Notes under the pieces: generated by a model
Seen by the model: the letters and a program-made list of their open reading frames with translations, nothing else
Told to the model about the DNA's origin: nothing
Databases searched by the model: none
Source: a virus
Length of the DNA stretch: 64,000 bases
IMG/VR virus record: IMGVR_UViG_3300025828_000014
Direction: 5' to 3' (one strand)
In this document: positions 40,339 through 62,756 of the stretch, one piece after another
Layout: each line of letters opens with the position of its first letter
Position numbering within the stretch: position 1 is the stretch's first letter
Program-made: the position numbers and the translations under genes

Positions 40339-41146
40339 ATTATTTGCTTTTGGTTGTAGTTTTACAAGGTATGGCTGGCCTACATGGGCAGATATTATGG
40401 CACTTGATAAAGGTGTAGACTTTTATAATTTTGCAATTGCTGGCTTGGGTAATGTTGGTATTGCAAGTAGGGTGTTTGAAGCAGATGCTAAATTTAATTT
40501 TACAGAACATGATAAAATTGTAATACTATGGTCTGGTTTTGAAAGATTTGACTGGATAACAAATACTCATTGGGAAAATTATGGAAGTGTGTTTCATGCA
40601 CCAAAAGAACGTAGGCTTTGGCATCAACGTAATTGGAGTGTAACTAACGATATTGTAAGAAACTATACCTCTATTTTATCAGTAAATAAATCTTTTAAAG
40701 AAAACATATTATGGCAAGCCCATGCATTTGATCCAATACTTGCAGAACACGGATTATCTGGTATAGATTATTCTCAACAAGATCTAAAAATTGCAAAAGG
40801 CTTAAAAAATTTATATGACAAAAAGCTACCTAATATTACAGTTAGAGAATTTGACGATTTGAAATTATGTTTTAAGGTTGTAGAAGATATTCATCCAGAT
40901 ATTGCTAGTCATAAAAATTTATTAGTTGAAAATGTTTACAAAGACTTAGGCTGGACATTAACTAAATCTACACATAAATTAATAGACCAATTGCAACATG
41001 ATATTGAGATATATGTTCAAACAAATCGTATTAAGGATTCGCATATATTGCAAGATTATTTGTGCAGAGAGCTACGTAAAAACGACAAATACCAACCTAT
41101 TCACAGATTATTCAAATCATATGAGCTACCTGATCATATATATTAG
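40331..41146 (+). CDS. SGNH/GDSL-like protein (paralog of 38576)
   Basis: 'RLFAFGCSFT', 'NFAIAGLGNVGI', 'EDIHPD'. Confidence 0.65.
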   Translation: MDRLFAFGCSFTRYGWPTWADIMALDKGVDFYNFAIAGLGNVGIASRVFEADAKFNFTEHDKIVILWSGFERFDWITNTHWENYGSVFHAPKERRLWHQRNWSVTNDIVRNYTSILSVNKSFKENILWQAHAFDPILAEHGLSGIDYSQQDLKIAKGLKNLYDKKLPNITVREFDDLKLCFKVVEDIHPDIASHKNLLVENVYKDLGWTLTKSTHKLIDQLQHDIEIYVQTNRIKDSHILQDYLCRELRKNDKYQPIHRLFKSYELPDHIY

Positions 41147-41699
41147 GATAATCTTTCCATGTCCACAATTTTGGAGTAGACCTAATAGCATCTGGCAGTT
41201 TGTCTAAACCTAATTGTGCTGTTTCTGGCGTCATGTAATAATGGTAACCCATACTGTTAATATCTTGTTCTGCCCAAGGAGCATTTCTGTGTCTACCGTC
41301 ATATCCTAATTTTATTAAATCATCTTTTTCTTCTTTGCTGCTTAACAAAATCATGCCACCTCTGCCTAAACTAAGATGCTTCCGGTATTGAAAACTCAAA
41401 CACATGTAACTATCTTTTATATAACTGTTTCGTCTCCATAAAACAGCAGCATCATATATGTTGCTGTGTAAGTTATAATATTCTTCCCATCTACAGTTAG
41501 CCCAAGATACAGTTGCTCCTATTTTTTTAGCTGCCATTGGCACACTTAAATATGTTTGTTTTGGAACCGTAACATGTTTTATTTGTTTATAACGCAAAAC
41601 TAATTCAATAGCATGAGTGCAGCAGTCGGTGCTTACAGCATACGGAGCACCAAAAAAATCTGCTATTTGTCTTTCAAACTCATCTACAATATCGAACAT
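41112..41699 (-). CDS. DegT/DnrJ/EryC1/StrS-family PLP aminotransferase, shortened
   Basis: 'FERQIADFFGAPYAVSTDCCTHAI', 'YDAA', 'LSFQYRKHLSLGRGGMIL' (PLP lysine), 'GYHYYMTPETAQLG'. Start at ATG 41699, 4 nt after TAAATA. Confidence 0.8.
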   Translation of the reverse strand: MFDIVDEFERQIADFFGAPYAVSTDCCTHAIELVLRYKQIKHVTVPKQTYLSVPMAAKKIGATVSWANCRWEEYYNLHSNIYDAAVLWRRNSYIKDSYMCLSFQYRKHLSLGRGGMILLSSKEEKDDLIKLGYDGRHRNAPWAEQDINSMGYHYYMTPETAQLGLDKLPDAIRSTPKLWTWKDYPNIYDQVAHMI

Positions 41700-41703
41700 A
41701 ATG

Positions 41704-41751
41704 TATTTAACCACCAGATCTAATAAACATATACTTAATGGATTGTAAATA
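41704..41751. promoter_or_regulatory. Divergent late-promoter motifs
   Basis: TAAATA on - at 41704-41709; TAAATA on + at 41746-41751 followed by AAGGAG and the ATG at 41768. Confidence 0.55.
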
Positions 41752-41767
41752 TAGTAAGGAGTTTTAC

Positions 41768-42679
41768 ATGAAAATATTACTAACTGGATCTAGCGGATTT
41801 ATCGGACAACACTTGTTGCCAAGATTACAAGCAATTGGAGAAGTCCATGAGCTTAAAACAGATTTAACACATCACACAGGAATACAACAAGAAGTAAAGT
41901 CAGTGAATCCTGACATTGTAGTTCACCTTGCTGCTAGAACTGAAGTGCAAAAAAGTTTTTATGAACAAGTAAGTTTTAGTGAAGTAAATTATGTTGGCAC
42001 AGTTAATCTTATCGAAGCATGTAGACAACTTAGCACGTTACCTTATTTTGTATTTGCAAGCACAATGGAAGTTTATGGCTGGCAACCTATTTCAGATGAA
42101 GTAGAAAAGACCGGAACTTATAAAGAAAGCGTTGCTTTTGATGAATATACTCAGCCTAATCCAAATGCTCCTTATGCTGTTGCTAAGTATGGTTGTGAAA
42201 AATATTTAGAATATGCTGGTAGAGCATACGGTTTGCCTTGGGCAAGTTTTAGACAAACAAACAGTTATGGACGTAAGGACAATGATTTTTTTGTGACAGA
42301 ACAAATTATTGCTCAAATGATCAAAGGTGATACTTGTAATTTAGGATACGCAGAACCATATAGAAACTTTATTTACATTAGTGATTTGTTAGATGCATGG
42401 ATGGCAGTCATTGAAAACAGAGATGCATGTAAAGGAAACTTCTATACAATTGGACCAGATGATCCTCGTAAAATTAGACACTGTGCAGATTACATTGCTG
42501 AACAATTGAATTGGACAGGAAAAATAAATTGGGATACAAAAGATCCACGTCATGGTGAGATTTGGTGGCTCAACAGTAATCACAACTTGCTTACAAGTAA
42601 AACAGGGTGGACGCCTAAAGTATCTTATGAAGAAGGTATTGAAAGGACCATCCACCATTGGAAATCGATACTGACCTAG
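41768..42679 (+). CDS. NAD-dependent NDP-sugar epimerase/dehydratase (extended SDR)
   Basis: 'MKILLTGSSGFIG', 'HLAA', 'ASTMEVYG', 'PYAVAK' (YxxxK), 'RNFIYISD'; ATG at 41768 with AAGGAG SD. Confidence 0.9.
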   Translation: MKILLTGSSGFIGQHLLPRLQAIGEVHELKTDLTHHTGIQQEVKSVNPDIVVHLAARTEVQKSFYEQVSFSEVNYVGTVNLIEACRQLSTLPYFVFASTMEVYGWQPISDEVEKTGTYKESVAFDEYTQPNPNAPYAVAKYGCEKYLEYAGRAYGLPWASFRQTNSYGRKDNDFFVTEQIIAQMIKGDTCNLGYAEPYRNFIYISDLLDAWMAVIENRDACKGNFYTIGPDDPRKIRHCADYIAEQLNWTGKINWDTKDPRHGEIWWLNSNHNLLTSKTGWTPKVSYEEGIERTIHHWKSILT

Positions 42680-43758
42680 CTTATTCAAATAAAAAACATA
42701 CAAGGTATACAAACCCTTTTGGTTTGCAATATCTCCCCTATGAAGAATGGCAAGGCAACGGAAAATATTTTTTTATTGAACATTTTAGACGCAGAGAAGA
42801 ACTGGACTACATAAAAGAACTGCACAAACCAAATGTATTTTTGATACTACATGATATTTTAGAAGGATTTGCCTACAGAAGATTTAGTAAAATTGATAGT
42901 TTTGTTGTAAAAAATAATTTACAAGGAAAAGTGTTTTTCGCAACTTCTCTTTTAGATGCAGAAAAAGAATATGCTAAATGGCCGCTTTCTGGAAATTTTA
43001 AAACGTTTTATTATCCAGAATGGTATCATAGAGTGTATGATAATTTAATAGATTATCGTTTACATAAAATAAAATATCTAAAACCAACATACTTTTGTTG
43101 TCTTAATAATCGTCCTCACCCTCACAGACTACAAACGGTGACACTAATAGATTATTTTGATTTATTAGATAAAGGCATAGTCACGTGTTTAGATACACAA
43201 TACGAAACTCTTAACAATCGTATGCCATATGAACAAAATGTTATGTCTTATAATCAAAATTATACACAAGAAATAAGTTTTATACTGAATAATCAAAAAG
43301 AAATTACAAAAACAAAATTACCATTGAATTTTGATACAGAAGATTTTTCTCGTGGAAGTAGACCTCATGATTACAATAATATGATTTACAACGAATGTTT
43401 GATAAATGTAGTTACCGAAACACATTATGGCAAAGAACACAATTTACATCATCATATATTTTTTAGTGAAAAAATATGGAAACCAATTGTTTGTAAACAA
43501 GCATTTATAATGGTTGGACCTCAATATAGTTTAAGATATTTACGTGAGCTTGGCTTTAAAACTTTTGATAGCATATGGGACGAAAGTTATGACGAGTTGC
43601 CAGAAGATAAAAGACTTTACAAAGCTATAGAAACATTGTATAATATAATTAATAAGCATAGTGTGGAAGAACTAAACAGCGTTACATTAGAAATACGTAA
43701 ACACAATTTTAAACACTTCCAAAAAATAAGAAAAGAAATGGTTAAAACATGCTGGTAA
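42658..43758 (+). CDS. Glycosyltransferase-like protein (GT-B/GT10-like)
   Basis: 'FCCLNNRPHPHR', 'INVVTET...FFSEKIWKPI...FI.VG...L.YLRELGFKTFDSIWDESYD'. Start codon uncertain. Confidence 0.55.
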   Translation: MEIDTDLAYSNKKHTRYTNPFGLQYLPYEEWQGNGKYFFIEHFRRREELDYIKELHKPNVFLILHDILEGFAYRRFSKIDSFVVKNNLQGKVFFATSLLDAEKEYAKWPLSGNFKTFYYPEWYHRVYDNLIDYRLHKIKYLKPTYFCCLNNRPHPHRLQTVTLIDYFDLLDKGIVTCLDTQYETLNNRMPYEQNVMSYNQNYTQEISFILNNQKEITKTKLPLNFDTEDFSRGSRPHDYNNMIYNECLINVVTETHYGKEHNLHHHIFFSEKIWKPIVCKQAFIMVGPQYSLRYLRELGFKTFDSIWDESYDELPEDKRLYKAIETLYNIINKHSVEELNSVTLEIRKHNFKHFQKIRKEMVKTCW

Positions 43759-44354
43759 ACTTGGACGATGTGGCATTTTGGATGGACGCTGTGCGTAACA
43801 GTGAAAATCATTTTGGAGTGCTTGAAAGTTTTTGGAAAGGTCAAATACAAAGCAAAGTTTGGCTTATTGAAAAACTAACTGGTTATGCACCCATAAAACC
43901 TTTGGACATAGTTATCCACGGCGGCTGGAATGGAGTGTTAAGTAGTTTACTGTTCAATAGTAGACTTGACATTAATGATATACGCAGCATTGATATTGAT
44001 CCTAGCTGCGAAGAAACAGCAAACATGATGTGTAAACGTCAAGAAATGATAGGCAAGTTTACAGCAATTACCGCAGACATGTGCAAATATAAATATGAGT
44101 ATGAGCCTGACGTAGTTATTAACACAAGCACAGAGCATATTACCCAAGAACAATACAACCGTTGGTTGAGTAATGTGCCTGATAATAGTTTGCTTGTGTT
44201 ACAAAACAATAATTATAAAGAAGTGTCAGATCATGTTAGGTGCTATGATAGCCTACACGAATTTGTTAAAGCAAGTGAGCTAGGAGATATAATGTATAAA
44301 GATACACTCAACTTGCCATTATATGATAGATACCTATTGATCGGACGTAAATGA
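43749..44354 (+). CDS. Class I SAM-dependent methyltransferase-like protein
   Basis: 'IHGGWNG' glycine loop, 'SIDIDP', 'DVVINTSTEH'; paralog of 61631..62545. Confidence 0.6.
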   Translation: MLVNLDDVAFWMDAVRNSENHFGVLESFWKGQIQSKVWLIEKLTGYAPIKPLDIVIHGGWNGVLSSLLFNSRLDINDIRSIDIDPSCEETANMMCKRQEMIGKFTAITADMCKYKYEYEPDVVINTSTEHITQEQYNRWLSNVPDNSLLVLQNNNYKEVSDHVRCYDSLHEFVKASELGDIMYKDTLNLPLYDRYLLIGRK

Positions 44355-45730
44355 AAGATTTTTTAGATTTATTCAACAATAGACTAAAAGCAGAAGCAAC
44401 AGAAACATTTTGCGCTTTGCCTTGGATACACATGGCAACACGACCTAATGGAGATATGCGTTTGTGCTGTAGTGCTAATGCCAGCGGAGCAGGCACGGAT
44501 CATACAGTGGGTATTGTAAAAGACGATAGCGGACAGCATATAAACTTTGCAACAACATCTCCTATGGAAGCATGGAACAGCGAATACATGCGTAGTGTTA
44601 GACGCACTATGATGGACGGAAAAATACCTGCAAGTTGTAGTAAATGTTTTGCTGAAGAATCAAAAGGTGTAGTAAGCAAACGTGTGTGGGAAACAGGAAC
44701 GTGGATGGAACGTGGTCTTGATATACAAGATTTATTAAACGAAACACACAAAAATGGATACTACAAAGAAGAACTACAATATTTAGACCTACGTCTTGGG
44801 CATACTTGTAATATCAAGTGTGTAATGTGTTCGCCACATGATAGTAGCAAGTGGGTAAAGGACTGGAAAGTATTAGAGCCACAGCTAGAAGATCCAGAAG
44901 TCAAAAGACAGATGCAGTGGGATAAAGCTGCTTTCAACAACAAGTGGCATGAACAAGAAATATTCTGGGACGACTTATACAAACAAATACCCAATCTACG
45001 TGAAGTATACTTTGCTGGCGGCGAACCACTAATGATTGCTGAACACAAAAAGTTCATTGAAGAAATTGTTAGACAAGGATACAACAAACGCATACGTCTA
45101 CGCTACAATACAAATGGCATATTGGTCGATAAAGATTTAATTGAGTTGTGGAGTCATTTTGAAATAGTAAAAGTAGGTGTTAGCATGGACGCTGCTGGAC
45201 CACGCAACAACTACATACGTTATCCTACTGACTGGGATACAGTAGAACGCAATTTACACATTTTGGATAATACACCAGACAACATACGCCCAAGTATTGC
45301 TACTGCTATACAAATTTTCAACATAAAACATTTGCCAGATTTTATACATTGGAAAATATCACAGGATTTTAAAAAAGTCAACACAGAAGAAATCCGAGGT
45401 GTAAAAGCAGGCGGCGGCTTAGTGAACATGCACCTACTATACATACCAACGTTTTTGAGTATACAAATATTGCCCAAAGAGGACAAAGCAGAAATACGTG
45501 AATTGTTTGGTAAATTTAAAAACTATCTGCGAGATAATTGGACAACGGACTCTACCTTTTGGGAACACAATCCTTATGGTTGGAGACGCTGGGAAGCAAT
45601 ATTGAATCACATGGACGCAGACGACAAGAGCCACGTGCTGCCAGGGTTCAAAGAATATGTAAACAAACTAGATGCTATCAGAGGAGTTGATGCTAAAACA
45701 GTGTTTCCTGAATTAGCACATTTGTTATGA
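44351..45730 (+). CDS. Radical SAM protein, type A
   Basis: FCALPWIHMATRPNG...LCC...CSKC; CNIKCVMC; AGGEP. Confidence 0.88.
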   Translation: MKDFLDLFNNRLKAEATETFCALPWIHMATRPNGDMRLCCSANASGAGTDHTVGIVKDDSGQHINFATTSPMEAWNSEYMRSVRRTMMDGKIPASCSKCFAEESKGVVSKRVWETGTWMERGLDIQDLLNETHKNGYYKEELQYLDLRLGHTCNIKCVMCSPHDSSKWVKDWKVLEPQLEDPEVKRQMQWDKAAFNNKWHEQEIFWDDLYKQIPNLREVYFAGGEPLMIAEHKKFIEEIVRQGYNKRIRLRYNTNGILVDKDLIELWSHFEIVKVGVSMDAAGPRNNYIRYPTDWDTVERNLHILDNTPDNIRPSIATAIQIFNIKHLPDFIHWKISQDFKKVNTEEIRGVKAGGGLVNMHLLYIPTFLSIQILPKEDKAEIRELFGKFKNYLRDNWTTDSTFWEHNPYGWRRWEAILNHMDADDKSHVLPGFKEYVNKLDAIRGVDAKTVFPELAHLL

Positions 45731-46635
45731 AGCATATTGAAAATCACGATACTGACTTTGTCATTGAATTAGACTTGGGCAACACTTGTAATTACCGGTG
45801 TAGCTATTGTTTTCCTGGTGCCAATGAAGGCACAGTGCGCTGGCCTGACGTAGGTAGATTAGAAACAGCACTGCTGAAATATATCAAGCAACATGACAGA
45901 CCCACTAGACTGTATTTGATTGGTGGTGAGCCTACACTGTGGAAACACCTACCGAGGTAGTGTAATACACTTAAAATGGCACATGATATAAAAATATGCT
46001 TGAGCACCAATGCCAGTCAAAGTCTCAGTTGGTGGAGAAGACACTGGCATTGTTTTGATGTGGTCCATATCAGTCTACATCATGAATCGGGAAATCCTTC
46101 TCATTGTCTCAGTGTTGCCGAATTGTTATACGATTACCGTGTAGAAACAAATATTGACGTGTTGATGGATCCTGAACACTTTGAACGCTGTAAGACGCTT
46201 GTAGACGCTGTAACGGGCGGTATAAAGCTGTTTCCAGTGCTTGCTAAAACTGTTTTGTATGATGGCAAACATCGCTATAACGAGGAACAACTCGAGTATG
46301 TGCGTGATCCAATCAAGCAATATCCTGATATGGATTGGTATCAAGAAGTCCAACGCAAACCAAGGACTGAATTCAACATAGACGGAGTAGCACACACAGA
46401 TGACAACTACTTTATGGTTAATGATCTAAATCACTTTGAGGGTTGGCAGTGTAATTTAGGTGTTGATACGGTAAAAATAGATAGGCAGGGCAATGTCGGC
46501 GGCAATTGCGGAACTGATCTTGGCTACAACATCTATGATTTACCCGATATTGAAATCAAACCTGTAAAATGTAGTAAATACACATGTCCATGTAGCGGCG
46601 AAACAATAACCACCAAGTGGAGAGCACATGTTTGA
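45727..46635 (+). pseudogene. Radical SAM protein, type B, interrupted by an in-frame TAG at 45958-45960
   Basis: ORFs 45727..45960 and 45976..46635 are in the same frame: CNYRCSYC...GGEPTLWKHLPR*CNTLKMAHD...STNAS...NHFEGWQCNLG...CPCSGE. Joined length is 302 aa, like its paralogs. Confidence 0.75.
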
Positions 46636-47677
46636 TACACTAATACCAAAAGACGACAGAATATTCCAAGTTGCTTGGGAAAGCACACTGAAATGTAATC
46701 TTGATTGTGCGTATTGTGGCGATGGCCATGACAACAACACAGAACATCCTAGTTTAGGAGAGTGTAATGAGACTGTGGATTTTATATTTCGCTATGTTGA
46801 TCTCAAAATGTCCGAGCGTCCTGAGTCAGCCAGGCAAGCCAACTTAAACATACAAGGCGGTGAAAGTTTATTCCATCCACACATAGTTGATATACTGAAA
46901 TGGATAAACTTCAAAAGACAAAAATACGATTGGTATATGGGCATAGCATTTATAACCAATGCTGTAGTTGGCGTAAAACAGTGGACCAGAGTATCTGAGT
47001 TTGTGGACTACTACACAATAAGTTATCATGCCAGTGCTACCCAAAAACAAAAAGACATGGTTAGACAAAACATCATGTATTGTAAAGGCAAAGACAAAAA
47101 CTTTTGTGTAAACATCATGATGGATCCAAGACACTGGGCGGACTGTGTTCAAATGATTGAATGGTGTAAGGCCTATCACATACCACATCTGCCAAGACAG
47201 ATTGATCATCATTGGTTAGACATGCGTTGGAACTACTCTGCTGAACAAGCAGAATATTTACTGGGACGTAAGATTTCGATCAAAGACAAAATTTCTCATG
47301 CGCTGGTAAAAGGACTTAACCTCAGTGCTGAAGGAAGAGCCTGCTGCGGTGGCAAAACACTGTGCGCCAGTGGCTGTGATACCAAACGTGTAGACAACAG
47401 ATTTAAAAATTGGCATTGTAGTGTAGCAGATCACTTTTTGTATATTAGACAAAACACAGGCGAAGTGTTTACCAACAAAGACTGTAGGATGAATTATTCA
47501 AGCAGTGTAGGACCTATTGGCAACTTGAACAACCCAGATGCTATGCTCACATCAGCACACAATCGCGGCATAGTTTGTAAAAAGTCAAGTTGTTGGTGTG
47601 GTATATGTGCGCCTAAAGCACGAACTAAATCACAGTTTGATGCCATGATGGCAGATCTAAACCGTCAAAATCAGTAA
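46628..47677 (+). CDS. Radical SAM protein, type B' (extra Cys motif)
   Basis: CNLDCAYC, QGGE; C-terminal RACCGG...C...C, FKNWHC, CWCGICAPKA. Confidence 0.85.
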   Translation: MFDTLIPKDDRIFQVAWESTLKCNLDCAYCGDGHDNNTEHPSLGECNETVDFIFRYVDLKMSERPESARQANLNIQGGESLFHPHIVDILKWINFKRQKYDWYMGIAFITNAVVGVKQWTRVSEFVDYYTISYHASATQKQKDMVRQNIMYCKGKDKNFCVNIMMDPRHWADCVQMIEWCKAYHIPHLPRQIDHHWLDMRWNYSAEQAEYLLGRKISIKDKISHALVKGLNLSAEGRACCGGKTLCASGCDTKRVDNRFKNWHCSVADHFLYIRQNTGEVFTNKDCRMNYSSSVGPIGNLNNPDAMLTSAHNRGIVCKKSSCWCGICAPKARTKSQFDAMMADLNRQNQ

Positions 47678-48782
47678 GGGTAAGATCTTTCACAAGCCCT
47701 GTTTCTGGTTGCCAAGGTTGTATACCCTCTGCTGCCCGTTGATCAAATATCACAGTAGCATCACCTAGTTCTTTTTGTAAAGCAAGTATCAATTTATTTT
47801 CTTGCTCTACTCTATAGCGTAAACTATACATAGCAGCAGTGCCTTCATAGCAAAAAACATTGCTCATGTCAATCACTGTGCCTTGAGGATTGTCTTTGGG
47901 TATGTGTGCTACAAAGTCATCAGGTGTGTTCACAGGATCAATGTGTATGCCGCCGCCTGCTGCTTCTAATGCTGCCAAATTGTAATCATAGTAAATGTGT
48001 TCAGCAGCAGGTCCACGTTGTTCCGCAGCAGCAGGATTAGCAGGTGCTACAAGACGCATAACAGGTGTGTCATACACTCTTGGATAGTTGGGCTTGCCTG
48101 TTGCTTGTGTGTGAACATGTGTGGTCAAACAGTAGTTGTATTTTTGATAGATATAGCTAGAAGTTTCTCCTGACCTGTATTGATAAAACTTGCCCTCACG
48201 TTGATCTTTGCTATACGCTTCTATGGTGCGATGGTTGTCCAGCAGTGTTTTGATTAGATTCCAACCTGCTTGTTTGTGTTTGTAGTTTACAATGATTTTT
48301 CCAGAGCCTACCCATGTTGGTAGGTAGTCGTCATGTATGCTATCATGACTACGCATTGGTTCAAGTGCTTGGTAATCAGTAAAGAACTGTGATTTTCCAA
48401 ACTTAGGACAGCCTAGGTCAACATATGTTTGTAAGTTGATGCTGAAACACTGTGGGTGTATGCCATAGTAAGCATCTCCACCGTCCAGTATGTGACACAG
48501 CAAATCATATTCTTCAGGATGGGTGTCAAAAAACTGTGTGCCGTTGATAAATTCTGTGCCAGCACTGATAACAACAGCATGATCGTATTTGCCACAGGCA
48601 CGTTGTAGCAGTTTGTCTACATTGGTATGTTCAAAAACAGTATAGCCCTGGCCAGTTAAGTTGCTGATTGTGTAGTCAGCACGGTTTACAACCAGTTCTC
48701 GGTCCACTGTGTATTCAGCAACATCGTTGACAATACATACACAGGTTTTACGATCAGTGAATTTGCTTGGATATACGTTCAT
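47625..48782 (-). CDS. Hypothetical protein
   Basis: 385-aa ORF directly downstream of the oxygenase-like gene; no family recognised with confidence. Confidence 0.6.
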   Translation of the reverse strand: MNVYPSKFTDRKTCVCIVNDVAEYTVDRELVVNRADYTISNLTGQGYTVFEHTNVDKLLQRACGKYDHAVVISAGTEFINGTQFFDTHPEEYDLLCHILDGGDAYYGIHPQCFSINLQTYVDLGCPKFGKSQFFTDYQALEPMRSHDSIHDDYLPTWVGSGKIIVNYKHKQAGWNLIKTLLDNHRTIEAYSKDQREGKFYQYRSGETSSYIYQKYNYCLTTHVHTQATGKPNYPRVYDTPVMRLVAPANPAAAEQRGPAAEHIYYDYNLAALEAAGGGIHIDPVNTPDDFVAHIPKDNPQGTVIDMSNVFCYEGTAAMYSLRYRVEQENKLILALQKELGDATVIFDQRAAEGIQPWQPETGLVKDLTLTDFDGLDLPSWHQTVI

Positions 48783-49503
48783 GTTGTTTACGATAACTAT
48801 CTACAATTAGTTGACAGTATTCTTTCTTACGATTGCCCAAATAGCAGTGTGCTATAATGTGTATTCTTGGACGGTCACTAAAGTTTACTACACTGTGATC
48901 ACGGAATATGTTTACCAAACACATCTTGCCAGACTCAAAAGGAACTACACCAGCATCCTTTAAGGTCATGTGACAATCGTCAGGATGATCCACAGCAATG
49001 TTAACAGGAATAGGAAAATCAAAAAGATTTTCTGAAGTTACCATGGGTGAAAAGTCATTGTGCGGTGATATCCAACCACCGGGTGCTAATCGCATAAAGC
49101 GTATTCTAGCAAAGCGTTCTGCTGGAAACACACTCTCAAAAAACATACGTATGCTTTTACATTTAACACCTAGTTCAGTCCATGAATATTTAGGCTCTGT
49201 TTCATATCCATATGTTTGATACACATTGGTTTTGTCTATGCCTATACCGTGTAGCACACAACTACTCCATCCGTTGTGTGTGCCTTCTCCTGTGGCTTCA
49301 TCTCTATGTGCTACATAATGAGGTTCAGCTAAATTGCTTTCTTTCTGCCATTGAGCAGTAGGAAACATCCAGTCTAGTTCTAGATATTGATAGCCATGTC
49401 CTGAAATAATCCAACGTGCTTGATCTTCTAAATCATAATCTGGAAGTGGATGTAATTCTGTTGCGGCATCTTTGTGCTGCTGATAAAATTCTATATGATC
49501 CAT
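48754..49503 (-). CDS. 2OG-Fe(II) oxygenase, aspartyl/asparaginyl beta-hydroxylase-like
   Basis: 'RIRFMRLAPGGWISPHND' (HxD) and 'HSVVNFSDRPRIHII'. Confidence 0.75.
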   Translation of the reverse strand: MDHIEFYQQHKDAATELHPLPDYDLEDQARWIISGHGYQYLELDWMFPTAQWQKESNLAEPHYVAHRDEATGEGTHNGWSSCVLHGIGIDKTNVYQTYGYETEPKYSWTELGVKCKSIRMFFESVFPAERFARIRFMRLAPGGWISPHNDFSPMVTSENLFDFPIPVNIAVDHPDDCHMTLKDAGVVPFESGKMCLVNIFRDHSVVNFSDRPRIHIIAHCYLGNRKKEYCQLIVDSYRKQHERISKQIH

Positions 49504-49507
49504 ATGG

Positions 49508-49537
49508 TATTTAGTTCATTAAGTGCGCATATAAATA
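49508..49537. promoter_or_regulatory. Back-to-back late promoters, each 4 nt from a start codon
   Basis: TAAATA on - at 49508-49513, then CCAT and ATG (49503); TATAAATA on + at 49530-49537, then AAAA and GTG (49542). Confidence 0.65.
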
Positions 49538-49541
49538 AAAA

Positions 49542-50588
49542 GTGTTTAGTTTTACAGATCTCAAAAGCGTCCACATAGAAATATCAAATCGTTGCCAAGC
49601 ACAATGTCCTATGTGTAGCAGGAATTATCATGGTGGCATTGAAAATCCTTTGCTACGTGAAGCAGACTGGACTGTTAATGACTTTATACAGGTTTTTGAG
49701 CAAGAAGTCAAGAGCCAAATTGAAAAAATCACATTTTGTGGAAACTTTGGTGATCCGTTGCTAAACTTTCATTTGGTTAAAATGTTAGACTGGATAAAAG
49801 ATGACGGCATATATGTTGATATACACACCAATGGTAGTTTGCGAAATGAACGTTGGTGGAAAGAATTGCCTAAACATTTGCCCGCAGAACACAAAGTTGT
49901 TTTTGCCATAGACGGATTAGCTGATACCCACAGCAAATATAGAATCAACACCGACTTCAACAAAATTATAAACAATGCTAGAGCATTTATCAATGCTGGC
50001 GGCACCGCAGAATGGAGCATGATAAGATTCAAGCACAATGCTGATCAAGTAATTGCAGCACAGGAAGTTGCAAAATATTATGGATTCAAATATTTCACTG
50101 TGAAAGACAGCAGTAGATTTGCTTTTGAAAACAGCTTTGATGTAAAAAACAATCTAGGACATGTTATAGACACACTGGAACCACACACACCTACAGAACC
50201 TATTGATCCTAAACAAATACCCGAACTAGTATCAGCAAGTGTAATAGACTGTTGGGCAAAAAAGCAACGTGAAGTTTACATAGACGCACACTTAGATTTA
50301 ATGCCTTGCTGCTTTTTAGCCAGTATACCCTACAACTATCATATACGACAAGATCCGCTGTATGAAGCAAAACAAAAAATCAAAAGTCAATATGAGTTTT
50401 TGATAGCAGACATGGGCAACACAAATTTACACAAACAAAGCATCAAACAAGTTATCAGCAAGCCCGGATATACATCAGTGTGGAAACGCTATTGGACCAC
50501 ACATAAACTGTATACCTGTGCTAGAACCTGTGGCAATCTAACTACAAACCCGAGCCAACAATTTGTTGAAAAACATCAAGTGACTTAG
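49542..50588 (+). CDS. Radical SAM protein with C-terminal SPASM/twitch-like domain
   Basis: CQAQCPMC, 'CGNFGDP', 'HTNGS'; C-terminal IDC...YIDA...MPCC...CARTC. Confidence 0.85.
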   Translation: MFSFTDLKSVHIEISNRCQAQCPMCSRNYHGGIENPLLREADWTVNDFIQVFEQEVKSQIEKITFCGNFGDPLLNFHLVKMLDWIKDDGIYVDIHTNGSLRNERWWKELPKHLPAEHKVVFAIDGLADTHSKYRINTDFNKIINNARAFINAGGTAEWSMIRFKHNADQVIAAQEVAKYYGFKYFTVKDSSRFAFENSFDVKNNLGHVIDTLEPHTPTEPIDPKQIPELVSASVIDCWAKKQREVYIDAHLDLMPCCFLASIPYNYHIRQDPLYEAKQKIKSQYEFLIADMGNTNLHKQSIKQVISKPGYTSVWKRYWTTHKLYTCARTCGNLTTNPSQQFVEKHQVT

Positions 50589-51603
50589 CTTTGGGCACAC
50601 ACATACCGCAACCACATCTATTGTGTGGGCAGCGTATGATCCTATTTCTGTTTTCATAAGCATAGTTTAGTATACCATCAGGATTACCTAGCCTGCCTAT
50701 TGGACCTTTCCTGCCACTGAAACTGGTTTGACAGGTTTGATGGTGATATACTTTTTCTGTGTGTTGATCAATGTGTAGAAAATAACGATTAACAGCACAA
50801 TACCAGCCTTTGAAGTTGGTGTTCACTGCTTCTACATTCTGCCAACAGCCATTACAACTACCTTCTATACTTCTAGCACCACAGCATCCTCTAGGCAATT
50901 CATAGCCTTCGGTGATTTTTTCCACTATATCTGTTGGCAATCCTTTTTCTTGTAAATACCATTCTTGTTGTTGTTTGTTATATGGATGGCTTGTCCTACG
51001 CTGAACACCTTCTGTGTCCGCAAACCAATCTGTGACACCTAGATTACCATCGCCGATCATAGTAGGCTTGCTGTCTATTCCGTGTGATTTAAGTTTTTCG
51101 TGAACTTCTACACACTCATCCCAGTGGTCGGTGTGCATCATTACATTCACAGTAAGCCACATTCCTGCTTGTTTTACAAGTATAGCATTATTAATAGTGC
51201 GTTCTTTGCTAAAAAGATTAGCTTCGGCATGGTAACTCAGTGTTATACCCACAAAGTTATTTTTTATAAAGTCAATATGCTTTTCTGGCCATGTTCCGTT
51301 ACTGGTCATACCAACTTGAAACTCGGTTTCGTTGTTTATTTTTTCTACAAAGTCCCAGAAGCGTGGATTTACAGTTGGCTCACCTCCAGTAAAGCCAATG
51401 TTAGCATTGGGTTGATTGTATAATCTTGTGTATTGTTTTATAAAATCTAATGTAGAACATAAATTTTGCCAACTAGTAGGAGGACTGTATGTATTGTGTC
51501 GTGTGCTTTCACAATAAGTGCAATCAAAATTACACCTTCTGCCGATGTCCCAAGTAACCATCATTGGTTCGGGGTTTGTTAGTTTGATTGCATCTACTTC
51601 CAT
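50542..51603 (-). CDS. Radical SAM protein, type B'
   Basis: CNFDCTYC, TGGEPT; RGCCGA...CNGC, FKGWYC, CGCGMCVPKA. Start at ATG 51603 (MEVDAIKL). Confidence 0.85.
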   Translation of the reverse strand: MEVDAIKLTNPEPMMVTWDIGRRCNFDCTYCESTRHNTYSPPTSWQNLCSTLDFIKQYTRLYNQPNANIGFTGGEPTVNPRFWDFVEKINNETEFQVGMTSNGTWPEKHIDFIKNNFVGITLSYHAEANLFSKERTINNAILVKQAGMWLTVNVMMHTDHWDECVEVHEKLKSHGIDSKPTMIGDGNLGVTDWFADTEGVQRRTSHPYNKQQQEWYLQEKGLPTDIVEKITEGYELPRGCCGARSIEGSCNGCWQNVEAVNTNFKGWYCAVNRYFLHIDQHTEKVYHHQTCQTSFSGRKGPIGRLGNPDGILNYAYENRNRIIRCPHNRCGCGMCVPKAKSLDVFQQIVGSGL

Positions 51604-52490
51604 TTTGTAATATTTACATCTGCTGCACAAGTGCACCAATTTCTGGTGCAAATAACATGCTGATCTGGCCTAACAAATGTTCCTTCGTATATATTTCCCA
51701 GACTGCCACCAACTCTACAGGTTGCTCTATGCACTTCACCGTCCCAGTTGATCATTAAACTTTCTATTCCTGCTCTGCATTGCCATCCTTTAAACATATT
51801 TAATTTATTTTTTAATATATCATTTGTATGCATTAGTTCTTTGCTATCAACAAGTGTATTTGGTTTCGCAGTTGTTTCTGTGCTTTTAATCCATTCTAAA
51901 TCTTTTAAATCATAACGCATATCGTCAAACCAGTCATGTTTTTCAGTCCAACGTATACGTCTAATACTAAATGGAATATTGTGTTCAGTTAACCATCTTG
52001 TGGCTAATTTTACTTCAGGCATATAATCTTGATGAGCCATTAACATTACATGATAATCTTTTGGAAATTTCGTGCCTCCTAATGTTCCGGCAAGATAAAT
52101 TATGTTATCAAGTCTTACACTCCAATCAACATCTTCAAGATGTAAACTAAAAACGATATAATTTACACGTAAATTTAAATAGAAGTCTGACTTCCTTGTT
52201 CCGTTAGTAGTTACACTAAGCCATTTGATCTTTGGTCTAGCATATTCTATCAATTGTTCAAATTGTGGATGCACACAAGGTTCGCCTCCTGTAAAACTTA
52301 TCCTAACATTTTCAATTTCGGATAATCTATCTACAGTTTCAAAAAGTTTGCCTATGTTTGTATGTGGACTGTGCTGGTCATGTATTTCAGGAGGACAGTA
52401 GGAACAATCTAGGTTGCAACGTTTTCCTAAATTCCATTCTACTTTTACACTATCTCTGTAATGCGGCCATCTGTTTTCTACACTAAACAT
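51594..52490 (-). CDS. Radical SAM protein, type B
   Basis: CNLDCSYC, TGGEP; NMFKGWQCRAG...ATC...GNI...CTRNWCTCAAD. Confidence 0.85.
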   Translation of the reverse strand: MFSVENRWPHYRDSVKVEWNLGKRCNLDCSYCPPEIHDQHSPHTNIGKLFETVDRLSEIENVRISFTGGEPCVHPQFEQLIEYARPKIKWLSVTTNGTRKSDFYLNLRVNYIVFSLHLEDVDWSVRLDNIIYLAGTLGGTKFPKDYHVMLMAHQDYMPEVKLATRWLTEHNIPFSIRRIRWTEKHDWFDDMRYDLKDLEWIKSTETTAKPNTLVDSKELMHTNDILKNKLNMFKGWQCRAGIESLMINWDGEVHRATCRVGGSLGNIYEGTFVRPDQHVICTRNWCTCAADVNITKWK

Positions 52491-53422
52491 TTACTAATAT
52501 TAGTCTCCGGCATACATTTACACTCGCATTGAGTGCAAATAACAGGTTGTAATGTGGGATTAAATTTTTTATAAAATGTTTTTTGTCTAAAATTATAATT
52601 TTTATCTTTGCCAAATAAATGTTGTCCACATGTTCCACTTAATTCACCATTTGGGCTAATATGTATCCAGTCTAATCCTAAATTACATTTCCAACCTTTG
52701 AAAGTATTAAGTTTATTTACTAAAATATAATTGTCTGGCACACGTTTTTCGTCTACATATATTTTAGTTGATTTGTATTTGTTATTAATAAAAAACCAAA
52801 AAGGATTAGCACTACGAGCTTTATGTTTTTTTAAAATAATTTTTTGTTTTTCTGTATATTTTTCATGACTTAGAATTTCTGTATATCTAATAGTCCAGCG
52901 ATATTTGCTTTTTTTCATTTGTTTAACTGCTGATATACATTTGTCCCAAGCTAACGGATCCATCATTACACTAGCACTTACAATAACTTTATTTTTATAT
53001 AGTAAATCAGCAACGTTAATAAATGACTGTAGATTGGCTTGTTGATGATGATAACTTAGATGTATTTTGTCAAAATATTTGGCAAAATTATTCCATAAGT
53101 CTAATTTTTTACTACCATTGCTAGTCATGCTTATCAAACAAGTGTAATTATCTTTTAAATATTTTATATAATCTAGTAACTTTGGCCAGTGTGTAGGTTC
53201 ACCGCCTACAAAATGAATATCGAATTTAGTTTTACCTTGACTCATATACCATTTGAGCAGTCTGTCTGTATTCTTAATTAATAGATCGTAATCAAACCAT
53301 TTATAATTACCTTCGTGTGCTCCTTCAAAACAATACCAGCATTGATAATTACAAATATTACCAATACTCATATCTATCATTAGTGTATCGTCATTGATAT
53401 TATTTTTAATTTGCGTAATCAT
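52478..53422 (-). CDS. Radical SAM protein, type B
   Basis: CNYQCWYC, VGGEPT; NTFKGWKCNLG...GTC...CTQCECKCMPE. Confidence 0.85.
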   Translation of the reverse strand: MITQIKNNINDDTLMIDMSIGNICNYQCWYCFEGAHEGNYKWFDYDLLIKNTDRLLKWYMSQGKTKFDIHFVGGEPTHWPKLLDYIKYLKDNYTCLISMTSNGSKKLDLWNNFAKYFDKIHLSYHHQQANLQSFINVADLLYKNKVIVSASVMMDPLAWDKCISAVKQMKKSKYRWTIRYTEILSHEKYTEKQKIILKKHKARSANPFWFFINNKYKSTKIYVDEKRVPDNYILVNKLNTFKGWKCNLGLDWIHISPNGELSGTCGQHLFGKDKNYNFRQKTFYKKFNPTLQPVICTQCECKCMPETNISKCLV

Positions 53423-54665
53423 TAATTAAGTCTTCAAAATTTGTTTGATTACGGCTTTTGTCTAATCTACGATTGAACTCTACAGTTTGTGGCCATTTGT
53501 GAGACAAGTCCTTGGCTAATAGAAAGTTAATGTTATCATCAATTTGTCGTAATGTAATAGGTAGTATCTTATCGTTTATACTCATAATAGGATAATTTTT
53601 TACATCTTCTTTAATTTTAATTAATTCTTTTACAACTTTTTGCTTGTATGTGTTTGGTAAACACTGAGCACTTAAAACATTTGGATAGTTTACTCTGTGC
53701 GAGTAAAACACAATGCCCATTGTGTTTAAAAAATAATCGATAATCTGTGGCAATTGTAAAACATTACCTGCTTGGACAGTGCAAGCACCTACAACATATT
53801 TAACATTGGGAAAGCTCTTAAAGATTTTGACATTTTCTTCCACTTCTTCAAACTTACCATTGCCTCTAATGTATTCATACACATCGTGTAGCCCGTCTAT
53901 GCTTACATTTACGACCACGTTTTTAAACTTAGGCCAATAGTCGTGTATGGTCCTTCCGCCCTTTATACCAGTCACTGTGCCGTTTGTAGCATACTTTATT
54001 TCAATGTTTTCGCCGTATGGTGCTAACATATCTAAAATGCGATAGTGACTAGGATCCATCAGTGGTTCGCCACCAGCAAACTCAATTCTGCGGAAATATG
54101 GAAGCAATTTTTCAAGATTGCTCCAAAACTCTACACTGTCTTCAAACAAGCCAATGTATGGTGCTCGTGTTAATCCTAGTTTGCGCACAGCATCCACTAG
54201 GTAGTTGCCTTCTTCCTCATAAAACTGTTCTACTTGTTCCCAGTCTTTCCACTGTGTGCTGTCTAATGGATTGCACATTCTACACTTGAGATTGCACAAG
54301 TTGTTAATTTTTATCTCAATAGTAGGAAACTCAAACGGCATGGTATAGTCATCATTGAGTTTGTCTAATGCATCAGGATACAAGTTTATACGTGCATCAG
54401 GAAAACTATCACGTATGTGTCTTTGCCTTAAACTTTCTACACCTTGTGCTTCTAAATCAAAACAAGGAACACATTCGGCTGGTATTTCATTATTTAATAC
54501 TTGCTCACGCACTCTAAGCATATTTTTGTTATTCCATGCACTTTCCAATGTTTCATCTTGTATCCAGCCAATTGGTTGACTACGACAGCATACTTTGATT
54601 GCACCGTCTTCTCTAGTAGCAAGACCTGTAAAAGGGTGTAAACAAAAAGTTTTACTTGGATGCAT
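53406..54665 (-). CDS. Radical SAM protein, type A
   Basis: FCLHPFTGLATREDG...VCC...CVPC; CNLKCRMC; AGGEP. Confidence 0.88.
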   Translation of the reverse strand: MHPSKTFCLHPFTGLATREDGAIKVCCRSQPIGWIQDETLESAWNNKNMLRVREQVLNNEIPAECVPCFDLEAQGVESLRQRHIRDSFPDARINLYPDALDKLNDDYTMPFEFPTIEIKINNLCNLKCRMCNPLDSTQWKDWEQVEQFYEEEGNYLVDAVRKLGLTRAPYIGLFEDSVEFWSNLEKLLPYFRRIEFAGGEPLMDPSHYRILDMLAPYGENIEIKYATNGTVTGIKGGRTIHDYWPKFKNVVVNVSIDGLHDVYEYIRGNGKFEEVEENVKIFKSFPNVKYVVGACTVQAGNVLQLPQIIDYFLNTMGIVFYSHRVNYPNVLSAQCLPNTYKQKVVKELIKIKEDVKNYPIMSINDKILPITLRQIDDNINFLLAKDLSHKWPQTVEFNRRLDKSRNQTNFEDLINDYAN

Positions 54666-55347
54666 TTGCTATACCCCATTCACGTTCTTTACACCAAAAA
54701 CATTCGTTACAGTATGGCACATGTTGATAAGGTTTGTATGTTGTATAGTCTAGCCCTTCAAATTCTCCTTCACAACTACGTGTTATTTCCAACAGTTCGC
54801 CGATTTCATAATCAACATACTGTTTTATAATCCAATTTTTACGAACCATACTAAAAGGATGACACACTGTTACACCCATATGTTTTGTTTCGGCAGGCAA
54901 TCTAGCATATTCTCTGTCCTCGGGAGCACCTTCAAACTTTTCATCTGGATTAAGTGTCACAGCAGCATACCATGCGTCAAGTTTGTGTAGGTGTGCAATG
55001 TATTCATTGTGAGCTCGTAGTATAATCCTGTTACCAGGCTTGCTTTGTCCATACTCGTCTGTGATATAGGTTGTGTTTGGCTCTTCCATCTCTGGTGGTA
55101 TAAAGCCCTCTATATGTTCAATGCGATTATGAAACTTTTCACGGAACCAATGAACCACATCTTTAGCAACCCAACGTTGCCAAGGGCGTGTTTTCCACAT
55201 ACGCACTTGTGTAGTGAAGTAGATATCAGCGTTTGTATTACTCAACACAAAATAAGCCAGCAAAGCACTGTCAGCACCGCCACTTAGACTGATGCCAATT
55301 CTATTCCAATTTCTTTTAAGGGGGATGTAAACTCCGTCGATTACCAT
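54652..55347 (-). CDS. PP-loop ATP pyrophosphatase, QueC-like
   Basis: 'ISLSGGADSALL' PP-loop; C-terminal Zn motif 'TRSCEG...CNECFWCKER'. Confidence 0.7.
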   Translation of the reverse strand: MVIDGVYIPLKRNWNRIGISLSGGADSALLAYFVLSNTNADIYFTTQVRMWKTRPWQRWVAKDVVHWFREKFHNRIEHIEGFIPPEMEEPNTTYITDEYGQSKPGNRIILRAHNEYIAHLHKLDAWYAAVTLNPDEKFEGAPEDREYARLPAETKHMGVTVCHPFSMVRKNWIIKQYVDYEIGELLEITRSCEGEFEGLDYTTYKPYQHVPYCNECFWCKEREWGIANASK

Positions 55348-55352
55348 ACTAA

Positions 55353-55380
55353 ATTATAACACATTTTAGTAATGTGTCAA
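55353..55380 (-). promoter_or_regulatory. Sigma70-type promoter TTGACA-N16-TATAAT, 5 nt before the ATG
   Basis: On the - strand: TTGACA 55380-55375, TATAAT 55358-55353, then TTAGT and ATG (55347). Confidence 0.7.
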
Positions 55381-56198: not shown

Positions 56199-56855
56199 AT
56201 GCTAACTAACACTGAATTTACAACAACTCCTGCTACACTTTTAGAAGCCAATGCGCTATGCCAAGAAATGACAGGTAAAACTGTTTTAAACAAACCTAAA
56301 GGAGATTTTTTCTATGATCCATGGGAAATATTGCCTGAATATAGCGGCACAGTATTTGAACGTTTGTTACAACCTTTACAAAACATAGGCGAAGCAAGAA
56401 TTATACGTCAAGAGTCTGGAACTTGTTATTTTGCTCACAGTGATATTGACAACAGATATCATTTGAATATATCAGGAGATCAAGCAGCATTATTTGACCT
56501 AAACAATAACAAAATGTATCCTTTAGAATCAGACGGCAAATACTACCTAATGGATGCTGGACGTAATCACAGTGCTGCTAATTTTGGCCAATTTCCAAGA
56601 TATCAATTGGTAGTTAGATGTTTACTTAAAAGATCGACTTGGGTAAACAAACCAGTAGAAATTATTGGTGCCGGAGAAAATCCAAGATTTGTATTTGACA
56701 AATATATTTCACCGTTATTAAACGAAATCAACAGACGCGGAGCAATGAATAAATTTTGTATTACTACTACAGGTGTAAAGTTTATAACAAATGATTTTTG
56801 GATAAATGAATTACGTCAAGTTATGCCATATAAATTTTCTTTGCTAACTCAATAA
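56199..56855 (+). CDS. 2OG-Fe(II) oxygenase, Asp/Asn beta-hydroxylase-like
   Basis: 'EARII....GTCYFAHSDID.RYHLNI' and 'HSAANFG..PRYQLVVR'. Confidence 0.65.
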   Translation: MLTNTEFTTTPATLLEANALCQEMTGKTVLNKPKGDFFYDPWEILPEYSGTVFERLLQPLQNIGEARIIRQESGTCYFAHSDIDNRYHLNISGDQAALFDLNNNKMYPLESDGKYYLMDAGRNHSAANFGQFPRYQLVVRCLLKRSTWVNKPVEIIGAGENPRFVFDKYISPLLNEINRRGAMNKFCITTTGVKFITNDFWINELRQVMPYKFSLLTQ

Positions 56856-61644: not shown

Positions 61645-62545
61645 GTTATTAGATAGATTTGAATTGTTATTTCCAACAAATAGTAAAATTTCTGATTTAC
61701 GTAGGGCATATACAGACAAAGATTTATCAAGTATATTTAGATTGCTTCCGGATGATGTTAACGGCACAAAAGATGATTTACGTAAAGCAGTTTTAGAAAA
61801 TAATTTGCATAGTATTTTTAGATTGGCCAATGATGATGATTTAAGAAAACTTATCTTGGAAGACAATACGTGGAAACTGTGGCCTATTCTTGAAAGATAT
61901 GTAGATACACAATTTATTGCAGCATTTAAAAACTTTTTTGTAAATGAAACTGAAATTTGGGACGATTGTTTTAGTAGAGGACAATTACAAAGTAAATTAT
62001 GGTTAGTTGAAGAACTTAAAAAACAAAAAGTAGATTTAGGAACAGTGTATTTGTGTGCTGGATGGTATGCTACACTTGCTACAATGCTTTTTGAAAGTGG
62101 TATGAAAGTAGACAAGATACGAAGTTTTGATATTGATCCAACTTGTGTTGACATTGCTGAAACATTTAACAAGCCATGGTTTGTAGACAACTGGCGTTTT
62201 AAATCAGTTACCAAAGATATCATGCATATAACATATGATGAGCATTGGTGGGAAAGTTGGAGCAATGCTAATAATAGAATGAGTAAGCCTATTCTTGATA
62301 AACCAGATACAATAATAAACACCAGCTGCGAACATATACAAAATTTCTCAGATTGGTATGCTAAAATTCCAGATGGAAAATTAGTAGTTTTACAAAATAA
62401 TGATTACTTTGATATAGATGATCATGTAAACTGTGTAAATAGTTTGCAAGAGTTTGAAGCAATGACTACTATGCGTAAAGTTTTATATAATGGTAAAAGA
62501 GATTTACCAAAATACACAAGGTTTATGAGAATTGGATTTAAGTAA
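61631..62545 (+). CDS. Class I SAM-dependent methyltransferase-like protein
   Basis: 'FSRGQLQSKLWL', 'LCAGWYA', 'SFDIDP', 'IINTSCEH'; paralog of 43749. Start at ATG 61631 (MQTFELL) preferred. Confidence 0.6.
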   Translation: MQTFELLDRFELLFPTNSKISDLRRAYTDKDLSSIFRLLPDDVNGTKDDLRKAVLENNLHSIFRLANDDDLRKLILEDNTWKLWPILERYVDTQFIAAFKNFFVNETEIWDDCFSRGQLQSKLWLVEELKKQKVDLGTVYLCAGWYATLATMLFESGMKVDKIRSFDIDPTCVDIAETFNKPWFVDNWRFKSVTKDIMHITYDEHWWESWSNANNRMSKPILDKPDTIINTSCEHIQNFSDWYAKIPDGKLVVLQNNDYFDIDDHVNCVNSLQEFEAMTTMRKVLYNGKRDLPKYTRFMRIGFK

Positions 62546-62756
62546 TTTTTCAGTAAGACAGTTACAATTAGAAAGTGCAAGAGCATTAAGCACAATGGAA
62601 GCAACAAATAACAATATTTGGATGTTTAACAAAGAAGCACATCATAACAGTTGGAATTGGTATTGTGCTGTTATACATTGGTATATTGACCAATACGGTG
62701 ACTTGCCTAGCAAAACAGGACCCGGAAAAAACATTAGGTTAGTTCTTGATGATTGA
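62532..62756 (+). CDS. Small hypothetical protein (74 aa, Trp-rich)
   Basis: Fills the gap and overlaps both neighbours in operon fashion. Confidence 0.55.
   Translation: MDLSNFSVRQLQLESARALSTMEATNNNIWMFNKEAHHNSWNWYCAVIHWYIDQYGDLPSKTGPGKNIRLVLDD

Follow-up and report, generated by a model that had tools for sequence, protein, structure and literature searches.

The question raised by the locus described here is how two operons of radical S-adenosylmethionine (SAM) enzymes came to face each other in a phage genome, and what they serve. The locus lies in a stretch of 64,000 nucleotides (the window) on the reverse strand of the 76-kb linear IMG/VR virus record IMGVR_UViG_3300025828_000014. Its source is an uncultured, large marine myovirus with a low G+C content (~33% in the window), and the two operons, referred to as the plus arm and the minus arm, sit in an enzyme island behind the tail-fibre genes. 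A first-pass annotation had read them as a mirror image, A-B-B′ facing B′-B-B-A, that arose by an old inverted duplication or by two parallel acquisitions and now serves two chemistries; A, B and B′ stand for three types of radical SAM enzymes, and individual genes are named here by their lowest coordinate in the window. Trees and gene order confirmed the facing layout and showed it to be old and shared by a wide group of related phages. The best overall explanation, to which we assign a probability of roughly 0.55, is that an old duplication followed by cassette exchange gave the facing operons, and that their enzymes would edit a sugar precursor.

The seven radical SAM open reading frames (ORFs) that the first-pass annotation had listed for the arms were recovered at the same positions and on the same strands, each with the CxxxCxxC motif, and its total of 14 radical SAM proteins in the window agrees with the 14 ORFs found to carry this motif. 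The sequence motifs said to be shared by the outer A genes (ATRPNG..LCC / ATREDG..VCC and CSPHDSSKWVKDW / CNPLDSTQWKDW) and by the inner B′ genes (CCG, GPIG.L.NPD and C.CG.C.PKA) were all present in the translations. The genes are tightly packed in two convergent blocks spanning 43749-47677 (+) and 55347-50542 (−). Read from its outer end, the plus arm comprises the head gene 43749, A (44351), B (45727) and B′ (46628), with overlaps of 4, 4 and 8 nt; the minus arm comprises the head gene 54652, A (53406), two B genes (52478 and 51594) and B′ (50542), with overlaps of 10-17 nt. They form two predicted convergent operons, each with its own promoter-like site (Table 1). The gap between the arms is occupied by three unrelated genes (47625, 48754 and 49542), of which the cupin 48754 is a weak paralogue of 56199-56855.

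In a maximum-likelihood tree of the window's 14 radical SAM proteins, the B′ proteins 46628 and 50542 were sisters with a support of 95/98, and the A proteins 44351 and 53406 were sisters with a moderate support of 80/78, both as expected from the mirror. The A genes of the two arms were found to be each other's nearest paralogues, and likewise the B′ genes. The path lengths within the two pairs were alike (2.43 and 2.38 changes per column for A and B′, respectively), and identities between the arms amounted to 27-30% for both. In pairwise BLAST comparisons, 46628/50542 (144 bits, 29% identity) and 45727/52478 (156 bits, 31%) were reciprocal best matches; the best match of 53406 was 44351 (157 bits), and 44351 scored about equally against 31254, 32467 and 53406 (168, 160 and 157 bits, respectively). 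In wider B/B′ trees, which included orthologues from related contigs and 23 cluster representatives, the B′ proteins formed one clade (support 99-100) with two subfamilies, a 46628 type and a 50542 type. Both duplications, that of A and that of B′, are older than the sampled phage group. At the DNA level, only matches of 24-59 nt that encode the shared motifs are left of an inverted repeat, and a recent inverted repeat was rejected on this ground.

Sister pairs as expected from an inverted duplication of the cassette were obtained for A, with moderate support, and for B′, but the conserved B genes 45727 and 51594 do not pair. In the 14-protein tree, 45727 was the sister of 52478 (94/95), and in the wider trees 52478 branched at the base of all plus-arm B genes. 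An exclusive pair of 45727 and 51594 was rejected in the 14-protein tree by the approximately unbiased test (p-AU = 0.011), and the 51594 type formed a clade of its own (99-100) that was placed nearer to B′ (86/82). A clean duplication of the whole three-gene block was not shown, since the 51594 type is not paired with the plus-arm B.

Gene order was followed in 54 IMG/VR loci, which were retrieved with B′(+) at 48-95% identity and annotated against the window's proteins. The order in these relatives is not random: an arm in which A is followed by B and B′ was found in 48 of the 54 loci (A-B-B′ in 39, A-B′-B in 9), and the facing arm B′-B(51594 type)-A was kept in all 36 loci that reach far enough. 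Five loci (L035-L038 and L040) have a different layout or are too short to tell. The extra B gene 52478 was detected in only 7 loci, which are the closest relatives of the window. The drawn mirror of A-B-B′ facing B′-B-B-A is thus present in the window, but the ancestral form is the cleaner A-B-B′ facing B′-B-A, in which 51594 is the minus-arm B; 52478 is probably a later addition because it is confined to the 7 close relatives. A role of 52478 as the original minus-arm partner of 45727, suggested by their sister position, is less likely; the gene is missing from the close relatives L006, L011, L015, L016 and L039, whose A sequences group around that of the window in the trees.

The junction between the arms varies. 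Nearer relatives carry 47625, 48754 and 49542 there, the 47625-type gene being confined to them, and distant ones carry a gene like the A gene 28725 or nothing; the 49542-type gene is positioned upstream of A(+) in distant relatives. In L016, the B′(+) gene (L016:10001-11029) is only 65% identical to that of the window with flanking genes at 91-98%; recombination within this arm seems to have exchanged this one gene. A search of cluster representatives yielded 40 clusters at E < 1e-30. The basal 46628-type B′ P0151 stands alone beside genes for an epimerase, an aminotransferase and a 2-oxoglutarate oxygenase. A 220-kb contig of a more distant phage has a single co-directional cassette, in which an A of the 44351 type is followed by a B′ of the 50542 type (P0124), two 49542-type genes, a methyltransferase-like gene and finally a B like 51594. 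Among deposited phages, the region gave no megablast match. The cultured jumbo phage Vibrio phage K566 has a convergent cluster of four A-family genes (L056, 159-176 kb) that are annotated only as hypothetical or radical SAM, and Ralstonia phage RsoM2USA (L055) has an orthologue of 28725 (35% identity) flanked by 34704-like (DUF6071) genes; no B or B′ gene was found in either phage.

Both A genes exceed the curated cut-off of 170 bits for the family NF033640 (N_Twi_rSAM), fill positions 1-397 of the 398 positions of the model and were also recovered in a whole-record search. The Pfam SPASM domain was located at residues 21-99 of 44351 and 8-68 of 53406, with Radical_SAM behind it (150-306 in 44351), and C21, C39, C96 and C99 are invariant across the six A paralogues of the window. 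The N-terminal part of the A family profile matched the C-terminal twitch domain of the aminocyclitol dehydrogenase BtrN (E = 6e-5), which like the A family has no peptide-recognition domain; the two differ in that the domain order is permuted, with the twitch first in A, and the similarity is weak. For 53406, 2944 homologues were found, the best 120 of which show 68-100% identity in metagenomes.

The B and B′ proteins were assigned to the radical SAM enzymes by the CxxxCxxC motif together with a PF04055 score above 29.5 bits. The B enzyme of each arm ends in a short Cys-containing tail. The motif is present in all five B/B′ genes of the arms; 46628 scored 21.5 bits, below the cut-off, yet it has the motif and is the sister of 50542, and for 45727 the scan covered only the part after a stop codon. 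This stop, an in-frame TAG at 45958-45960, had been missed by the first-pass annotation. It is replaced by TTG or CTG (Leu) in eight related contigs, and TAG serves as ordinary stop in 9 of the 47 ORFs of the window. Thus, the stop is particular to this contig and either a nonsense mutation or a sequencing error in this base, and recoding of TAG was rejected for the same reasons. The genome contains a second B of the 45727 type, 52478, which could cover the loss. The minus-arm B 51594 gave a weak full-length match to NF038073 (STM4011-family radical SAM) below the cut-off. In an alignment of 23 sequences, the further invariant cysteines of B′ are C240, C241, C269, C291, C325, C330, C332 and C335, which would be enough for two auxiliary clusters; the hidden Markov model of SPASM (PF13186) did not match the B′ proteins. 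The likely true start of the 50542 gene is the ATG at 51603. ESM Atlas neighbours of the B′ (50542) family are almost all viral, and no full-length B′ homologue was found in 50,697 deposited phage records, in which the protein search matched the radical SAM core only.

The classification of the head genes as methyltransferase-like (43749) and QueC-like (54652) was borne out at the fold level. AlphaFold models calculated from orthologue alignments reached a predicted local distance difference test score (pLDDT) of 86 for each of the two proteins. In Foldseek searches against the PDB, 43749 matched NTMT1, NodS, DnrK and ChlM (E = 1e-9, template modelling (TM) scores of 0.58-0.68); its glycine motif reads HGGWNG, a variant form. 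For 43749, Pfam, NCBIfam and PHROG gave no match, and a profile search of PDB sequences gave nothing useful. The 54652 protein resembles QueC and Cap9 in its PP-loop SGGADS and its terminal CxxCxxC, and S22-G-G-A-D-S27, C192, C213, C216 and C219 are invariant in 12 orthologues. Its best Foldseek matches were QueC (2pg3/3bl5), TtuA and Cap9 (E = 2e-5, TM 0.5-0.6). Unlike QueC, it is not a member of a Pfam or NCBIfam family, that of QueC included, and no PDB relative was found by profile search; the similarity is confined to the fold, with TM scores of only 0.52-0.57, no pathway partners are in view, and phrog_1550 ('QueC-like') aligns only to the C-terminal 74 residues.

The two chemistries proposed in the first-pass annotation have no support in the relatives: the PP-loop gene adjoins A of the minus arm in 31 loci but A of the plus arm in 6. 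As its place thus switches between the arms, the head genes are not bound to either of them, and a single pathway (or a single molecule modified at two positions) is probably served by both arms, rather than two chemistries. In this pathway, A, B and B′ would most likely catalyze successive radical C-H steps, for instance oxidation, epimerisation or C-C/C-methyl chemistry. The methyltransferase-fold protein 43749 would add a methyl group, and the QueC-like PP-loop enzyme 54652 may activate a carboxylate for amidation. The likely substrate would be a sugar-type precursor of a glycan provided by the neighbouring dehydratase/epimerase, aminotransferase-like and transferase-like genes; the sugar-type substrate is assigned tentatively, at slightly less than even odds. 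Pointers to it are the SDR epimerase/dehydratase and the DegT-like fragment of the island, the surroundings of the basal B′ P0151, the sugar genes next to bacterial A arrays (see below) and the resemblance of the A twitch domain to that of BtrN.

Bacterial genomes were searched with an alignment of four A sequences as query; with a single A protein as query, nothing was found. The bacterial members of the A family occur mostly in Bdellovibrionota, in co-directional tandem arrays of up to seven or eight copies that are often accompanied by relatives of the B, 49542-type, methyltransferase-like, cupin and transferase-like genes. On complete Bdellovibrionales chromosomes, A arrays were observed at several places (e.g. 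L076 at 786-803 kb of OZ220490.1, L105, L124 and many of L063-L141). One bacterial array adjoins genes for an AsnB-type amidotransferase, a GT2 protein and a UDP-glucose dehydrogenase, another one a gene for an NDP-hexose 2,3-dehydratase. The AsnB domain is a PP-loop amidotransferase, and its location beside a bacterial A array parallels that of the QueC-like gene beside the phage A gene.

For the origin of the mirror, the favoured course of events would start with an old duplication that gave the A and B′ pairs before the phage group diversified. Later cassette exchange would have edited the arms, with a minus-arm B from another B lineage and a late 52478, and further editing would comprise the B/B′ order swap in one subgroup and the gene insertions at the junction. 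Alternatively, the mirror was assembled by recombination from already diverged A, B and B′ paralogues, which amounts to two parallel acquisitions, and its symmetry reflects a preferred A-B-B′ order and convergent packing. This course, which we consider rather unlikely, stays in contention because both B′ subfamilies occur outside the mirror, the 46628 type alone (P0151) and the 50542 type beside a 44351-type A (P0124). It is also in line with the unpaired state of the conserved middle genes, with the frequent exchange seen in 52478 (7 loci only), in the B/B′ swap (9 loci) and in the PP-loop gene, and with the diverged B′(+) of L016 among neighbours of >90% identity. However, the two A genes and likewise the two B′ genes are sisters, at depths that are nearly the same, as expected from one event, and since all 36 informative relatives have both arms, the assembly would have to predate the whole sampled group.

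Several results weigh against the favoured reading of old duplication, cassette exchange and sugar-precursor editing. The support of the A pair dropped to only 58/59 once orthologues and outgroups were added; it was still a clade in the best wider tree, in a near-trichotomy with the 31254/32467 lineage. Forcing the 51594 type together with the 45727/52478 type lowered the log-likelihood by 9 (p-AU = 0.045, borderline), the joining of a 44351-type A to a 50542-type B′ on the 220-kb contig indicates that modules re-assort, and the plus-arm B is broken in this contig. As substrates are not known for any enzyme of the three families, the sugar assignment is drawn from the gene neighbourhood only, and several bacterial A arrays are surrounded by housekeeping genes without a sugar gene in sight. 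Moreover, protein-directed enzymes are among the fold matches, namely the protein N-terminal methyltransferase NTMT1 for 43749 and the protein-modifying QueC homologue Cap9 for 54652, and Asp/Asn β-hydroxylase-type cupins are present in the island. The latter two findings also speak for arms that modify a protein or peptide, e.g. a virion protein such as the 4583-aa product or the upstream fibres, by a combination of radical reactions (cross-linking, epimerisation or oxidation) with methylation, hydroxylation and amidation. SPASM/twitch radical SAM enzymes are known above all as maturases of peptides and proteins (anSME and the maturases of peptides that are made on ribosomes and modified after translation), to which most of the weak NCBIfam matches point, and B′ is like an anSME-type enzyme in size and Cys count. 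In addition, the island lies directly behind the fibre genes, and a pilin-like protein follows one Bdellovibrio-type array. We nevertheless consider a protein substrate unlikely: Pfam/NCBIfam scans detected no RRE/PqqD domain in the arm proteins, the arms have no precursor-sized ORF, and the overlaps of 4-17 nt between their genes leave none of the space that a precursor gene would need; the family matches cover the generic radical SAM core only, and sugar-nucleotide enzymes recur as neighbours in the phage loci as well as in the bacterial ones. Very improbable is a minus arm that acts as 7-deazaguanine (queuosine-type) DNA or nucleotide modification pathway of QueC and QueE-like radical SAM enzymes, as the PP-loop and C-terminal Cys motifs of 54652, its best fold match QueC, the phrog_1550 match and weak QueE-type matches of the radical SAM cores may suggest. 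There is no Pfam or NCBIfam QueC match, and the QueE matches are weak, restricted to the core and no better than those to MoaA or viperin. Because neither TGT/DpdA nor QueD (PTPS) was found in the window's record and four relatives of 113-170 kb, all five of them fragments, a queuosine-type pathway is unsupported.

Phages normally carry one or two radical SAM genes. Larger sets have been described in marine T4-like phages, with 12 radical SAM genes in a 183-kb marine T4-like viral genome (Nishimura et al. 2017, PMC5332604) and, for pelagimyophages, radical SAM cassettes within the tail-fibre hypervariable region (Zaragoza-Solas et al. 2020, PMC7029224). The window, with its 14 radical SAM genes, shares with them the placement near host-recognition genes; the two studies only list genes, without families, A-B-B′ order, facing arms or function. 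The window may not belong to a pelagimyophage, because the nearest relatives of its baseplate protein are those of Atu_ph07-, PA5oct- and SCTP-2-like jumbo phages (32-36% identity). A link to the genome of Nishimura et al. was not shown, as the gene for an Fe-S A-type carrier (PF01521) was not found in the five fragments. NF033640 is a catalogued family without a characterised member in the literature searched, in which no work on radical SAM arrays of Bdellovibrio was found either. The A genes match it end to end, with an N-terminal Cys-rich twitch followed by the CxxxCxxC barrel; here, it is present in six copies in one phage window and paired with B/B′ in facing operons, and in bacteria in co-directional arrays.

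New here are the test of the mirror by trees and synteny, the placing of 51594 and 52478 in it, the movement of the PP-loop gene between arms and the nonsense codon. Within the radical SAM expansion of this lineage, no other piece is as conserved as the facing A-B-B′ operons. Reactions are not known for any of the three families, and their conserved unit offers a small, defined set of genes for a substrate search. Old duplication and cassette swapping at a convergent junction illustrate how a phage tailoring island diversifies. The toolkit is common to large phages and predatory Bdellovibrio-like bacteria. If the product of the favoured sugar-editing pathway is indeed a surface glycan, it bears on host recognition and on the competition between marine phages. 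A bolder extension, which we hold to be improbable, is that the arms are two parallel three-enzyme radical lines that share one scaffold and act at two positions of it or with two stereochemical outcomes. Their joint product, a sugar or glycoconjugate with heavy editing on the virion or on the infected cell, would result from a chemistry beyond that of characterised radical SAM enzymes, with the virus-restricted B′ as a new catalytic type.

Table 1. Features of the facing operons and of their surroundings in the window; group members are given by their lowest coordinate.
Feature	Position	Strand	Evidence or remark
Sigma-70-like promoter site, upstream of plus arm	43616-43644	+	TTTACA-17-TATAAT, 11/12; consensus match only
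Plus-arm head, 201 aa, class I SAM-dependent methyltransferase fold	43749-44354	+	AlphaFold and Foldseek
A(+), N-terminal-twitch radical SAM	44351-45730	+	NF033640, 391.3 bits
B(+), radical SAM with C-terminal Cys-rich tail	45727-46635	+	CNYRCSYC motif; interrupted by in-frame TAG
B′(+), radical SAM, 46628-type subfamily	46628-47677	+	Eight further invariant Cys; clade support 96-100
Protein without family match, 385 aa, junction insert	47625-48782	−	
Cupin, Asp/Asn β-hydroxylase type, junction insert	48754-49503	−	PF05118, E = 5e-9
Separate radical SAM type (R) without N-terminal twitch	49542-50588	+	PF04055, 34 bits; phrog_21308, E = 9e-26
B′(−), radical SAM, 50542-type subfamily	50542-51651	−	Eight further invariant Cys; PF04055, 57.9 bits
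B(−), 51594 type	51594-52490	−	PF04055, 45.3 bits; minus-arm middle gene kept in all relatives
Extra B of plus-arm (45727) type	52478-53422	−	PF04055, 40.3 bits; only 7 closest relatives
A(−), N-terminal-twitch radical SAM	53406-54665	−	NF033640, 320.9 bits
Minus-arm head, PP-loop ATPase, QueC-like fold	54652-55347	−	SGGADS; C192...C213xxC216xxC219
Sigma-70-like promoter site, upstream of 54652/minus arm	55353-55380	−	TTGACA-16-TG-TATAAT, 12/12; consensus match only
DegT-like fragment	41112-41714	−	Sugar context in phage island
SDR epimerase/dehydratase	41738-42679		Sugar context in phage island
A family	28725, 30076, 31254, 32467, 44351, 53406		All six exceed NF033640 cut-off
B family	33743, 45727, 51594, 52478, 62746		
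B′ pair	46628, 50542		
Separate radical SAM type	49542		
Baseplate wedge gene	Opens the window		phrog_10646, E = 1e-259; followed by 4583-aa ORF and three fibre-like genes

The enzyme island occupies the window from ~23 kb on, and its 14 ORFs with CxxxCxxC fall into the four groups given in Table 1. The 4583-aa product is encoded by a single ORF (3365-17116) between the baseplate wedge gene and the fibre-like genes. In relatives of the window, 12-22 PF04055 (Radical_SAM) matches were counted per 110-170 kb fragment. CheckV estimated a completeness of 31-48% for relative fragments of 111-170 kb (G001-G005, the records behind L010, L046, L015, L049 and L031), which would imply genomes of ~350 kb. 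The 200-aa ORF at 41112-41714 aligns only to the first quarter of DegT-type aminotransferases, has stops in all frames at its end and is kept in relatives at 62-93% identity; it represents either a short domain that stands alone or the outcome of an old truncation. A third unit of a methyltransferase-like gene followed by a B-type radical SAM gene was observed at 61598-62545 and 62746-63663, and over its C-terminal 190 residues, 61598 is a paralogue of 43749 (33% identity).

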